Origin: a virus
Taxonomy: Duplodnaviria; Heunggongvirae; Uroviricota; Caudoviricetes
DNA length: 4,652 bases
Strand: one strand, 5' to 3'
IMG/VR virus record: IMGVR_UViG_3300029885_000167
The notes under the pieces were generated by a model, which did no database searches, had not been told where the DNA came from, and saw only the letters and a list, made by a program, of their open reading frames with translations. The position numbers and the translations under genes are program-made. Of the stretch, positions 78 to 4,652 are shown piece after piece; the stretch's first letter is position 1; each line of letters begins with the position of its first letter.

Positions 78-161
78 GTCTTCATCCTCCTCCCAGTCAA
101 GAGATGACAGGAAGGATTTAAACTCTCTGTTACCAGGAAATTTCAAAGTTAAATCTTTCAT
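75..161 (-). pseudogene. 28-codon ORF (MKDLTLKFPGNREFKSFLSSLDWEEDED*) translationally coupled to the tail fibre gene; probably the 5' remnant of a gene cut by the IS insertion
   Basis: Its ATG (159-161) overlaps the stf stop TGA (158-160) in an ATGA arrangement. The reading frame runs for 28 codons and its TGA stop (75-77) is exactly the first three bases of the putative IS end. I do not recognise the peptide. Confidence 0.4.
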
Positions 162-2179
162 ACTGCCTCCTTGATTTGCCTGTCATTTAATTCTTTAAAC
201 CAGACTCTGAAATTTCTGATGTGTCCAAACAAATGACGCGTTCCTGCTGCGGTCTGCCCACCAAACCGGTACGATGTTGCTGTAACTCCAAATATTTTAC
301 CATTAAGGTTTGTTGTATAATTACCATTGCATATTGCATTTACTGATAAATCAGATTTAGCTCTCACACCCACAATGAACCTTTCTCCATCTGAGGCAAT
401 TTGTGGCTGAACCATTCCTACGTTGGCGCTTATCTTTCCTGTTGCAACAAACCCCAGCGATAAATAATTATCATCAATACTGTGCCCTCCAACATCAAAT
501 ATCCTTGGCGCAACATTGGGCGGTGTACTCCAGTTCCTGCTTACTTCGCACAATACCGTAAAAGGCCGTGTTGACAGGTTATTCTGCGATGGGATAGTAA
601 CTACATCACTTGCGCGTGTTGTTGGCATTGTAGTTACAATAAATGACGATGCCGTATTGCCCAGTTCAATTTGCGGCGTCGTCATGGTTAATGTTGAGTC
701 ATCATAGAATGGCTCATTACTTATTTTATTTGTCATATAAAAAGCACAGTTAACGGTATCAATGTCCGTATTAGCTGTATAAGTGGCCTCATAGTAGGTC
801 CACTCGCCCTGTTGTTCAGCTTTGGCTGTTATAAGGGATGTATTACCGCTTACTGTTGCGATCCGGGTATCCAGATCAAGATAAGAGTCAGCAGAGAAGG
901 TATCTGTTCCACCAATAATAACTGAAACTCTTAACCTGCATCGTGCTTTAGCGCCTTTAACCCGGCACGAAAAAGTGAAACATTCACCACTTGCCAGCGG
1001 GAATCTGTCTGCTGCAACCACACCATGCACAGTATAGCCACCTGTTGTTCCCACTATACTTTCCGTGGGTGTCACCGTGGCATAATTGAACCCCTGTTTA
1101 TCAGTGCCAAATGTTTTATTCAGTGCGGAATGAACAGTCCATGAGTCTGGTTTATTTGAGTTCCTCAGATAATTTGTCCTCTGTCCTTCAATCAATAAGC
1201 CATCGCGCTCAAATCGCGGTTCGTCAACTTCAGCAAGCTTGAGTTGGCCGGACTTATTAATATACGTTGCTGTTGAAGCACGTTTAAACTTAACAATCTT
1301 GTCGCCTGGCATTGTTATTTCATCGTCACCAATAACTATCTTTTTATAAGATGGCGAAAAACCCGTAATCATATCCAGTGAATCGTTAAACGGTATCCAC
1401 ACATCAGGCAGCGGCGGCACTATATTCGCACAGGGCTCTGCAGTCACTTCCGCTGCGGCTTCTGCGCGGTCTGCCGCCTTTTCAGCTCGTGTCGCTGCCG
1501 ACAGAGCCTCATCCTTTTTCTGCCCGGCCTTTGTTGCGTCTGCTGCGGCCTCCCGCGCTTTTGTGGTGGCGACTCCGGCATTTTCAGCGGCTGACTCTGC
1601 ATTACGGCGGGAAGCCTCTTCACTGTCTGCGGAGGCTTCTTCTGACGCACGGGCATTTGTCTCTGAACGTTCTGCCGCTGTTGCTGCGTTTTGTGCGGCT
1701 GTTTTTGAAGAAGCTGCCGCTTTCGCGCTGTTACCTGCATTCGTCTCTGATGTTTTCGCCGCGTTCCTGGACGATGCCGCTGCTGTTTCTGATTTCTTTG
1801 CTGCCGCTGCGCTCTGAGAGGCGGCTTCAGCGTTGCGTGCCGCCTCTTCCACCATCTTTTCAAAACGATACAGTGCCTCCGGACAAACATCATCTTCTGT
1901 TGCAGCGCCCAGAAAATCATTCAATGTCCCCGGCTTAGAATCCTCATACACGGTGATGGTCCCGGCATGTGAAGGCGGAAAACCTTCAACCAGCAGGGCG
2001 ACGCTGTACTGGCCATACTCAACATCCATGCTGTAACGTCCGGCTTCATCCGGATTTTCTGAGGCCACCGTGTTCACCACAACTGTGGTGCTGTTACGTT
2101 TTGCTTTGAGCTGAATGGTGCAGTTCTGTATCGGTTTTCCTGCACCGTCTTTCAGCACACCTGAAATCTGTACTGCCAT
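158..2179 (-). CDS. stf: Side tail fibre protein, Stf family (673 aa): conserved N-terminal anchor domain, Ala/Ser/Thr-rich repeat shaft, divergent C-terminal putative receptor-binding domain
   Basis: Complete ORF with stop TGA at 158-160. The N-terminal ~125 aa (MAVQISGVLKDGAGKPIQNCTIQLKAKRNSTTVVVNTVASENPDEAGRYSMDVEYGQYSVALLVEGFPPSHAGTITVYEDSKPGTLNDFL...) is near-identical to the N-terminus of lambda Stf and E. coli K-12 StfR as I recall them. Start set at ATG 2177-2179, which has GGAG 5 nt upstream; the GTG at 2183-2185 used by the ORF track overlaps that Shine-Dalgarno and gives an MNM extension absent from homologues. Confidence 0.9.
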   Translation of the reverse strand: MAVQISGVLKDGAGKPIQNCTIQLKAKRNSTTVVVNTVASENPDEAGRYSMDVEYGQYSVALLVEGFPPSHAGTITVYEDSKPGTLNDFLGAATEDDVCPEALYRFEKMVEEAARNAEAASQSAAAAKKSETAAASSRNAAKTSETNAGNSAKAAASSKTAAQNAATAAERSETNARASEEASADSEEASRRNAESAAENAGVATTKAREAAADATKAGQKKDEALSAATRAEKAADRAEAAAEVTAEPCANIVPPLPDVWIPFNDSLDMITGFSPSYKKIVIGDDEITMPGDKIVKFKRASTATYINKSGQLKLAEVDEPRFERDGLLIEGQRTNYLRNSNKPDSWTVHSALNKTFGTDKQGFNYATVTPTESIVGTTGGYTVHGVVAADRFPLASGECFTFSCRVKGAKARCRLRVSVIIGGTDTFSADSYLDLDTRIATVSGNTSLITAKAEQQGEWTYYEATYTANTDIDTVNCAFYMTNKISNEPFYDDSTLTMTTPQIELGNTASSFIVTTMPTTRASDVVTIPSQNNLSTRPFTVLCEVSRNWSTPPNVAPRIFDVGGHSIDDNYLSLGFVATGKISANVGMVQPQIASDGERFIVGVRAKSDLSVNAICNGNYTTNLNGKIFGVTATSYRFGGQTAAGTRHLFGHIRNFRVWFKELNDRQIKEAV
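1439..1852 (-). repeat. Low-complexity imperfect tandem repeat region encoding the Ala/Ser/Thr/Glu-rich fibre shaft (stf residues ~110-247)
   Basis: Translation shows reiterated SETNA / AAxS / AAE-like units (…AAKKSETAAASSRNAAKTSETNAGNSAKAAASSKTAAQNAATAAERSETNARASEEASADSEEAS…). The DNA is GC-rich with repeated gctgc/gccgc units and produces long shadow ORFs on both strands (1444-1920 -, 1489-1938 +, 1563-1817 +). Confidence 0.6.
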
Positions 2180-2184
2180 ATTCA

Positions 2185-2188
2185 CTCC
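2185..2188 (-). promoter_or_regulatory. Shine-Dalgarno (GGAG) for stf
   Basis: Minus strand reads GTGGAGTGAATATGGCA: GGAG, a 5-nt spacer, then the stf ATG. Confidence 0.5.
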
Positions 2189-2190
2189 AC

Positions 2191-2218
2191 AAATAAAAAA
2201 GGCACCATTTCTGGTGCC
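2191..2218 (-). terminator. Rho-independent terminator-like hairpin between J and stf
   Basis: Minus strand reads GGCACCA-GAAA-TGGTGCC, a perfect 7-bp GC-rich stem with a GNRA-type tetraloop, followed directly by TTTTTTATTT. It sits 19 nt after the J stop codon and ends 12 nt before the stf ATG. Confidence 0.6.
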
Positions 2219-2237
2219 CGAATTTGGGTTTTAAAAT

Positions 2238-4652
2238 TCAACTGATACTGATGCCGGCTGTTGATTTCTTCATCACGACAACAAGAAGGTCGCTGATACT
2301 GGTCGTTGGCGTCCAGTTATTTGCACCATATGAAGAAACATTGAAAGTCAGGGTGACATGGCCGTGTCCGGCAGGCATATCAATGACTGATGAAAATACC
2401 CTGCTGACATCCGTCGCGGGTTGCTGAAAGATTTCCTGTCCGTTCTTCAGCACCTGCAGCTTACAGGTTGAATACCAGTATGACTGTTGGTTGTTGCTGT
2501 TGAAGTTTTCATGCTTACCACCGCGAAACAGAACGGGGGGGACGACTATCTGACGGTCAAAAGCCTGGTCATCGTACACAGTGACCGTTATTGTACCGCT
2601 GGCATAACTGCCATTTCTCGGAAAGGCTTTTCCCACCGTTTTGACAATATCACCTTCAATCTGGTTAGCTGACAGTTTTCCCAGAATCCGACAGTTCTGG
2701 TTAATCGTGACATTATTGAGCGTCCCGGAGTTCGCATTCACGTTACCGCTGATATCCGCATTTCTCGCAGAAAGTCGACCATCAGGTGTCAGTGAAAACG
2801 TTGGGGGATTGCCACCGCTGGTAATGGTGGGAGCCGTCAGATATTTCAGGAACACTTCGTTCATGAATATCTGATCGCCCTGCCCAACAAACATCGGCTT
2901 TGTATTGCCATTCGCAGGATTAATCATCGCAATCCTGTCCGCCGCCAGCAGCACCTGACTCTGCATGCCGTCAGGGGTGTTCTCAATACCGGCACCAATA
3001 CCCGCGATATAAAGGCGTCCGTCCTGCATCTGCTGCAGCTTCACAGCCCACATGCTGTTCAGGTTATTATTTGTATCAACCTGAACCTTCTGTATCTGCT
3101 GAATTGCCGCACTCTGGTCTTCCAGTTTCTTATTGACGGTCTGCGTGATTTCATTGCTGACATCCGTAATGGACGTCCTGATTTCAGCCAGGTCAGGCGC
3201 AAGCTGACCGTTATCAATCTGCGTCCACAGCTCCTGAGCCAGATGGCTTTTCCCTATCTCGCCTTTGAAAAAATCCAGATAGCCGGATGCATCATCACTC
3301 GGCTGGCCAACAGCCTCCACAAATGCCGATTTGCCAACGGTGTTCACACTGCGGATGTAAAAATAATAATCATGGCCCGGTTTGATATTGATACTGGCAG
3401 CTATCCAGTACAGCGCCGTGCCAAGATAGCGGGCTGTGGTTTCAACCTGCCTGATATCCGCAATCCGCTTTTCCGAGAACCAGAACTCAAACTGTACCGT
3501 CGGATCATAAACGGCAAGATGGGGCGTGGCGGTTATCTGAAAATACCCCGGTGTCAGCTCAATCTGCGACGGCGCTGCCGGTGCGGCAATCCGGAACGAT
3601 ACCGATGCCGGATCGCCCTGCTGCCCCCACGCATTTACCGCCCGGACTGTCAGCCTGTAGTTCCCCAGCGCCAGTTGCCTGAAGCGGTATGTGGTTTCCG
3701 TCGTCCGGGCCATGCTGACCAGCCGCTCACTGCCGTCGTCCGCTGCCACGGTAAGGCGAAGCAGGAAGCTCACGCCCTTCACCACCTTCGGCGTGTCCCA
3801 TCGCGCCAGCACCTGATATTCCCCGCTGTCTGTGGTGACTTCGGCGGTCAGGTGCTGCACCGCTGGCGGCGTGACACCATTCACCGTGCCGCTCTGGTCG
3901 CCGTCAAAGTGCGCCCCGTTATCCACGATGGCTTCTTTTTCCGGTACATGCTGCACGGCGGTGATGGCATACGTACCGTCATCGTTCTCCCGGATACTCA
4001 CACAGCGGAACAGGCGCTGGCGCAGCGTCGGCAGCTTCAGCCCCCATACGCTGTATTCAGCAACACCGTCAGGAACACGGCTCACTTTTACCTTCACGCC
4101 GTCGGTGACGGACTGAACCTCCACGCTGACCGGATTGCCACTTCCGTCAACCAGGCTTATCAGCGTGGTACCGGAGGATGGCAGCGTGATTTCACGGTCG
4201 AGCGTCAGCGTCCGGGTCTGGCTGTTCACCGCCAGCACACGACCACCGGTGCTGATACCGGCATAGTCATCATCACAGATTTCAATAACATCGCCCGGTA
4301 CATGGCGAAGCCCTTCTGCGCCGACGCTGAAATCCACGGTCTGCGTTTCCAGCAGTTCCGTTTTAATCAGCCACAGCCCGGCGCGGTGTGCCTGCCCCCG
4401 ACTGGTACAGCCAAAGGCATCCATCTTCGTGACATTACGACCGTAACGGGCAATGGCCTGCGTATCCTCCACGAGCTCTGTCGCCGTCTCCCAGCCGTTA
4501 TCCGGGTCAATCCAGTTCACCTCAACGGCATTATGGCGGTCCTTCAGGGCGCTGAAGCTGTAGCGGAACGGCGCGCCATCATCCGGCATCACCACATTAC
4601 TGCGGTTATAGGTCCACACCTTATCTGATGGTCGGTCCTGCACGAACGTCAG
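2238..4652 (-). CDS. J: Host specificity protein J (tail tip / central tail fibre), C-terminal ~804 codons; N-terminal portion lies beyond the window end
   Basis: The frame is open to the window edge. Translation from the edge reads [50 protein letters not shown]…, near-identical to lambda gpJ from about residue 330 as I recall it; the track's initial M is really an internal GTG (Val). Stop TGA at 2238-2240. The C-terminal ~340 aa are much more diverged from lambda J than the preceding ~460 aa. Confidence 0.95.

Follow-up and report, generated by a model that had tools for sequence, protein, structure and literature searches.

A lambdoid side tail fibre ending in a widespread module with a predicted tandem lectin-type fold

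What does the side tail fibre of a lambdoid prophage end in, and what might that end recognise? The question is raised by a 4,652-nucleotide stretch of Caudoviricetes DNA (IMG/VR record IMGVR_UViG_3300029885_000167; hereafter the window), whose two large genes, both on the minus strand, are the 3' part of the tail tip gene J (2238-4652) and the side tail fibre gene stf (158-2185). A first-pass annotation, made from the letters alone, had assigned positions 158-1438 to a lectin-like C-terminal domain of about 425 amino acids (aa) and had left its fold unassigned. This interval encodes residues 250-675 and the stop codon, a module of 426 aa in which both peptides quoted by that annotation are present, and the complete product is a lambdoid side tail fibre composed of a lambda-type anchor, an Ala-rich shaft and this C-terminal module. 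Structural modelling predicts that the module is built from a conserved neck (residues 250-330), a jelly roll (331-525) and a second, LamG-like jelly roll (526-675). Fibre tips of this kind are widespread and have been catalogued before, and many Escherichia coli strains carry exactly this protein; the observations of the first-pass annotation were confirmed in full, its interpretation only in part. The parts of the protein are listed here with residues numbered along the open reading frame (ORF) of 675 codons, the likely product, from the ATG at 2179, having 673 aa:

158 to 2179, minus strand: stf, side tail fibre, 673 aa, with the stop codon at 160-158
1787 to 2179, minus strand: N-terminal Stf anchor for attachment to the tail tip, residues 3-133 (PF08400, PDB 9e7m, lambda orf-401)
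1439 to 1786, minus strand: Ala-rich shaft, residues 134-249 (composition)
1196 to 1438, minus strand: conserved neck of the module, residues 250-330, PLPDVW...ASTATYINKSG...EPRFE (allele identity, family-invariant residues)
611 to 1195, minus strand: predicted first jelly-roll domain, residues 331-525, NCBIfam 'phage head spike fiber' (NF048003)
161 to 610, minus strand: predicted second jelly-roll domain, ConA/LamG-like, residues 526-675

The N-terminal part of the protein is that of a canonical Stf, as had been proposed. PF08400 aligns with residues 3-133 at 225.3 bits, against a gathering score of 26.6 (E 2.8e-67), residues 3-96 align with a tail-fibre chain of 94 residues whose structure is solved (PDB 9e7m, E 1.5e-49), and the N-terminal part is 73% identical to lambda orf-401 across 158 aa. 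Alanine makes up 37% of shaft residues 134-249, a composition from which a trimeric α-helical coiled coil is presumed. The Stf of lambda (orf-401/orf-314) likewise has an Ala-rich shaft, with a second segment of 107 aa that is 53% identical to the window protein, and it occupies the same position after J with the same accessory role. The G+C content (GC) is 0.592 for the shaft but only 0.431 for the module (anchor 0.519, J 0.548), which bears out the reported AT-richness of the module DNA, and Thr, Asn, Ser and Gly, the residues said to be abundant there, together account for 32.5% of the module.

The tip itself is not of the lambda Stf or T4 gp37 type, again as the first-pass annotation had read it. 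The module contains no H.H motif, whereas lambda orf-314 has eight such repeats and the lambda tip needs the Tfa chaperone, and a BLASTP comparison of the C-terminal part with lambda orf-401/orf-314 was not significant (E 0.35). The module differs from lambda/gp37-type tips in having no sequence similarity, another predicted fold and another downstream gene: where lambda has orf-194 tfa, the stf of the window is followed by a gene for a protein of PHROG 1361 (hereafter the partner; 92 aa when complete).

At the sequence level, the module matches PHROG 1419 ('tail protein') over its full length (module 1-426 against profile positions 353-793 of 793, E 1.3e-172), and the NCBIfam model NF048003, 'phage head spike fiber', is found on residues 331-525 with 66.8 bits for the full protein and 68.1 bits for the module, against a cut-off of 36. 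An initial homologue search returned near-identical E. coli proteins only, and diversity was added by a representative search and two profile searches. When 1.84 billion cluster representatives were searched exhaustively, 1375 clusters were obtained at E ≤ 1e-3; the unit of about 420 aa lay at the extreme C-terminus in all 47 representatives checked, in proteins that ranged from 424 to 1247 aa. Since a single-sequence search of PDB reached the N-terminal anchor only, a family profile built from 48 diverse module members was needed to find relatives of the module among PDB sequences. This profile matched the RcGTA head spike fibre Rcc01080 (6tb9_F3, chain residues 42-280) with an E value of 5.6e-42, and E217 gp45, Pa193 gp46 (baseplate wedge) and Sf11 gp17 at about 1e-18; its last 150 or so residues matched pentraxins, the botulinum-toxin Hc-N domain and the S-layer-domain protein 4qvs (E 1e-5 to 5e-3).

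To assign the fold that the first-pass annotation had left open, a structural model of the module was generated with AlphaFold2 from an alignment of 55 homologues (21-49% identity) and searched with Foldseek and against known structures. The resulting all-beta model is confident (mean pLDDT 80.5, pTM 0.83) and displays the neck followed by two jelly-roll β-sandwiches of the ConA-like superfamily. Pseudomonas phage baseplate proteins and CBM40 ranked at the top in Foldseek. The structural matches of the model, with their scores, are as follows:

Botulinum and tetanus toxin Hc-N domains: 16-17.6
Trypanosomal sialidase lectin domain: 16.0
Pa193 gp46: 15.7
Sialic-acid-binding CBM40: 14-15
Pentraxins: 12-14
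LamG domains: about 11

The full two-domain arrangement recurs in a viral model library with query-normalised TM-scores of 0.6-0.84, in coliphage tail fibres and in many proteins of uncultured viruses labelled 'Concanavalin A-like lectin/glucanases superfamily'. The lectin-like reading of the domain is thereby upheld at the level of the predicted fold.

The distribution of sequence variation over this predicted fold is uneven. When the module was compared with the alleles of phage 21, mEp460, IrisVonRoten and KarlBarth, conserved and variable segments alternated:

Neck, residues 251-350: identity 52-92%
Body of the first jelly roll, residues 351-500: identity 8-48%
Inter-domain strand PQIELG...TRA, residues 501-550: identity 52-64%
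Body of the second jelly roll, residues 551-650: identity 12-52%
Last 25 aa, GHIRNFRVW...: identity 60-84%

In the neck (residues 250-330), identity stays at 60-92% even when T5-like and Dhillonvirus fibres are compared, and the family-invariant residues sit in the neck and in the inter-domain strand. For the hypervariable first jelly roll, the identity to other alleles comes to 12-36%. The closest comparison is with the fibre of phage 21 (CPT_21_22, UMO75437) and the Stf of mEp460_4F5, which have the architecture, the neighbours and the following 92-aa gene of the window locus. Anchor, shaft and neck of these proteins are 92-100% identical to the window protein and the last 25 aa 84%, whereas the jelly-roll bodies (residues 351-650) are only 12-52% identical, and for this reason they are read as carrying a specificity allele of the same module that differs from that of the window. 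Judged from these alignments, the pattern has the signature of a fixed scaffold with exchangeable recognition surfaces and, together with the break in GC at the junction of shaft and module, it indicates a horizontally traded specificity cassette. The putative specificity-determining segments can be narrowed to approximately residues 351-500 and 551-650. On either side of them lies conserved sequence that favours recombination, and host-range engineering of lambda-based vectors could make use of this arrangement.

The window protein is already known: identical fibres have been annotated in isolated phages and occur in hundreds of E. coli prophages, and curated libraries contain its domains. 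Window DNA from 78 to 4652 is 100% identical in temperate coliphages including 1H12, Lambda_2E9 and Lambda_ev058 and 98.6% identical in PhiR47_2. These phages and E. coli prophage alleles have the order J, stf, 92-aa gene and 97-aa gene beside sitABCD, as does the locus of the window, and essentially the sole difference of the window copy is an insertion element (IS) in the partner gene. Of 5426 complete E. coli genomes, 517 carry the module DNA at ≥80% coverage, and across all matching records 505 module records reach at least 99% identity. A tblastn search found the module in 218 phage records, comprising lambdoids, T5-like phages (IrisVonRoten, EC100), Drexlerviridae (tunzivis, swan01), Dhillonvirus (KarlBarth) and rV5-like myoviruses (JeffSchatz, LL12), where the gene that bears it is annotated as a lateral or side tail fibre; remoter members occur in genomes of Aeromonas, Shewanella and Endozoicomonas and in marine viruses. 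A very common class of E. coli Stf, including that of the classical phage 21, thus ends in a module with a predicted tandem lectin fold.

Two relatives bear on what the module may do. In IrisVonRoten (Bas32), the C-terminal 426 aa of Gp22, the proximal lateral tail fibre of this T5-like phage, are 43% identical to the window module and the gene is likewise followed by a homologous 92-aa gene; the domain is described as protruding, 'galectin-like' and a possible receptor-binding domain (Humolli et al. 2025, PMC11990801). Gp22 carries a T5 Ltf-type N-terminal anchor, unlike the Stf anchor of the window protein, and IrisVonRoten encodes a distal T-shaped fibre, Gp24, downstream, whereas the lambdoid locus has no such gene. 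DT57C LtfA/LtfB, considered as the nearest T5-like analogue, was rejected: these proteins end in S74 intramolecular-chaperone domains and not in the module. The second relative, RcGTA Rcc01080 (GhsB), shows homology in the neck motif ASTATY...EPRFE, in the first jelly roll and in the PQxE...TRA strand; as the head spike fibre of RcGTA it binds capsular polysaccharide (PMC10218006, PMC7296036). It is a single subunit on capsid vertices, where an N-terminal (I/L)-G repeat peptide docks into the pentameric head-spike base (PMC7296036); the window protein lacks an anchor of this type and has the Stf tail anchor at its N-terminus. Rcc01080 comprises 325 aa, and the approximately 45 residues after the matched region (chain 42-280) leave no room for a LamG-like domain. 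In E217 gp45, Pa193 gp46 and the Sf11 Dit protein gp17, by comparison, the domain is embedded in baseplate or Dit proteins and does not form a fibre tip, being peripheral in E217 gp45 and Pa193 gp46 and a C-terminal appendage in Sf11 gp17 (PMC12724387, PMC10329688).

From the architecture, the homology, the predicted fold, the pattern of variability and the C-terminal position of the module, we infer that the lectin-fold heads probably, though by no means certainly, bind surface polysaccharide reversibly before J makes an irreversible receptor contact. In this proposal, the lambda-type N-terminal anchor would plug the fibre into the tail tip, followed by the Ala-rich helical shaft and the 426-aa receptor-binding module with its neck and two tandem lectin-fold jelly rolls. 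The heads would most likely bind E. coli surface polysaccharide (O-antigen, capsule or another exopolysaccharide) weakly and reversibly, so that the virion would be concentrated at the cell surface and helped across the glycan layer, and J would afterwards contact its outer-membrane receptor irreversibly. Which glycan is bound would depend on the allele-specific sequence of the two jelly-roll bodies, and phages could exchange specificities by recombining at the neck and at the C-terminal strand, both of which are conserved. Reversible binding to surface polysaccharide is an established role of siphovirus side and lateral fibres, also according to the BASEL studies (PMC8594841, PMC11990801). 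The first-pass annotation had gone further and named the domain the primary host-range determinant of the prophage, which overstates its part: J lies just upstream, and the last 150 aa of the window J (region 2238-2690) are identical to phage 21 J and match lambda J at 71 of 156 positions, so the receptor specificity of the central fibre should be that of phage 21 and not that of lambda.

Several points weigh against glycan binding by lectin-fold heads. For Laminin_G_3 (PF13385) the window protein scores 20.9 bits, below the Pfam gathering score of 27.6, although 21 of the 56 aligned relatives reach E ≤ 1e-3 (lowest 6e-12); for CBM_4_9 (PF02018) it is likewise below threshold (23.1 versus 25.9 bits, with only profile positions 92-132 aligned). 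The fold was assigned from a model of the predicted monomer; neither RcGTA 6tb9, in which only residues 2-10 are resolved, nor the Sf11 gp17 entry 9occ, which covers only residues 3-165, includes the homologous region, for which the Pseudomonas baseplate wedge proteins alone provide coordinates. No coliphage member of the family has a demonstrated ligand, a literature search on the receptors of lambdoid Stf with a lectin-type tip found nothing specific, and the functional data come only from the distant RcGTA homologue, which shares the first jelly roll and not the LamG-like domain. Furthermore, ConA-like folds such as LamG and the botulinum toxin domains also bind proteins, lambda Stf has been reported to use OmpC, as cited in 10.1101/2022.09.30.509847, and the T5-like homologue also carries a second, distal fibre, so that binding may not be the sole role of the module.

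The protein-binding capacity of such folds leads to one alternative, namely that the heads recognise an outer-membrane protein rather than a glycan. ConA/LamG-like and botulinum-toxin Hc-type domains, which often bind proteins, are among the structural matches, and the use of OmpC by lambda Stf, in the report cited by 10.1101/2022.09.30.509847, would be a classical precedent at this fibre position. However, the nearest relative with a tested function binds capsule, the best structural matches are carbohydrate-binding modules, and the very large number of alleles (over 1300 clusters at 50% identity) fits the diversity of glycans better than that of outer-membrane proteins, so we regard a protein receptor as rather unlikely. 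It is more improbable still that the module and its 92-aa partner mainly form a docking platform that holds a further distal fibre or receptor-binding protein in a branched fibre. In the virulent siphoviruses IrisVonRoten, EC100, tunzivis and KarlBarth, further genes on the same strand directly follow the fibre and 92-aa genes and are annotated as tail fibre except in tunzivis (hypothetical protein), and Gp24, the T-shaped distal fibre, is predicted to attach to Gp22 (Humolli et al. 2025, PMC11990801). No distal fibre gene follows in the lambdoid context, however: the next gene in phage 21, PhiR47_2 and mEp460_4F5 encodes a small protein of 95 to 97 aa, after which comes sitABCD or an integrase, and docking is for this reason unlikely as the main role here. 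The hypervariability of the jelly-roll bodies would be unexpected in a docking surface, and the lectin-like domain has been placed so as to protrude from the fibre as a possible extra receptor-binding domain (PMC11990801).

An enzymatic role appears very improbable; the module would then be a depolymerase of ConA-like fold, either a glycoside hydrolase or a lyase, that breaks down surface polysaccharide. Catalytic proteins with the ConA fold do occur among the structural matches but rank well below the binding modules, Pfam and NCBIfam scans gave no enzyme family match, and no GH16 motif is present in the module. Nor does the model, being composed of jelly rolls, contain the β-helix or other catalytic domain of tailspikes and depolymerases; with family scans, structural matches and the motif check all giving it no support, the depolymerase reading was dropped. 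Reversible glycan binding by the lectin-fold heads is the preferred reading of the module.

Whether the fibre is active in this particular prophage is a separate matter that turns on the partner and on the IS. The features outside stf are:

1 to 77, no strand given: end of an IS3-family (IS629-like) element; phage matches begin at 78
78 to 161, minus strand: start of the partner gene, 28 of 92 codons, PHROG 1361
2195 to 2219, minus strand: terminator-like hairpin and T-run between J and stf, followed by the Shine-Dalgarno sequence GGAG at 2188-2185
2238 to 4652, minus strand: tail tip protein J, C-terminal 804 aa (Pfam; 98% identical to phage 21 J)

The partner is an acidic protein of 92 aa, found complete at a related locus (L002:2806-3084, minus strand), for which Pfam and PDB searches gave no match. 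Its ATG overlaps the stf stop codon (ATGA), which couples its translation to that of stf. The conserved partner gene travels with the module: in 144 phage records spanning four groups (lambdoid, T5-like, Drexlerviridae and Dhillonvirus) it is the next gene 3' of a fibre gene that bears the module, while rV5-like phages appear to have the module without it (218 module versus 144 partner records). Since the gene is retained in lambdoids that lack any distal fibre gene, the partner probably serves the module directly, as a cap or assembly factor. A bolder and doubtful extension is that the module and the adjacent, coupled PHROG 1361 partner constitute a two-component fibre tip, in which the partner would replace the Tfa-type chaperone as assembly factor or cap and three independent lectin-fold heads, monomeric by analogy with the single-subunit RcGTA head fibre, would be borne on a trimeric coiled coil. 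If true, this would be a tip organisation and assembly mode not yet described for lambdoid phages.

In the window, all phage matches begin at position 78, and four E. coli genomes that match the full window annotate an IS3/IS629 transposase at positions 1-77. The IS3-family element truncates the partner after 28 of its 92 codons, and the prophage may for this reason lack functional fibres despite its intact stf. That the fibre is not assembled here, which concerns activity in this prophage and not the nature of the module, is a serious possibility that we nevertheless place somewhat below even: the adjacency of the partner to the module in the 144 phage records and its ATGA coupling to stf speak for it, whereas the partner has no assigned function, rV5-like phages appear to manage without it, and the stf ORF is unbroken, with an identical one present in viable phages.

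The integrity of stf was itself at issue, an interrupted ORF having been named as a finding that would count against the first-pass reading. The ORF at 158-2185 runs uninterrupted for 675 codons from a GTG; this GTG, at 2185, overlaps the Shine-Dalgarno GGAG (2188-2185), for which reason the ATG at 2179 is favoured as the probable start. The resulting 673-aa form is the one found in databases, in more than 1000 contigs (P0051). In RefSeq, by contrast, intact stf is split in genomes that are 100% identical to the window. NZ_CP043406, in which the whole window is identical, has a coding sequence from an internal Met annotated 'phage head spike fiber domain-containing protein' and a partial pseudogene annotated 'prophage tail fiber N-terminal domain-containing protein', and in two further RefSeq genomes with identical DNA both pieces are annotated as partial pseudogenes; the Ala-rich shaft is left unannotated between the two PGAP pieces. 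The split is a recurrent annotation artefact and reflects no lesion, and it is flagged here as a mis-annotation.

Regarding the wider locus, stf lies directly downstream of J (J end 2238, stf start 2179), and genomes identical to the window contain the cluster L-K-I-J-stf. The J part matches Ig_J, Ig_J_second, Phage_Tail_Tip and Ig_GpJ_C (Pfam, E 1e-31 to 1e-41). The gap between J and stf (2186-2237) is only 52 bp long and has no lom, which lambda carries there; the phage 21 record annotates the same terminator-like feature in this gap, and a promoter scan returned no more matches than expected by chance. Beyond window position 1, the fibre cassette is adjoined by the sitABCD iron/manganese transporter operon, which is considered phage-carried cargo because it is also found inside the phage 21 and PhiR47_2 genomes. 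The gene between sitABCD and the 92-aa gene encodes a 97-aa protein (PHROG 1443), for which the phage 21 record gives a putative two-transmembrane (two-TM) membrane protein. Several otherwise identical E. coli prophages carry a copy of IS4 in the J-stf intergenic region (e.g. L011:2706-4052), and the isolated phage Lambda_4B5 has an IS4 transposase inside the same matched stretch; from these insertions, the fibre region seems to be a recurrent IS target.

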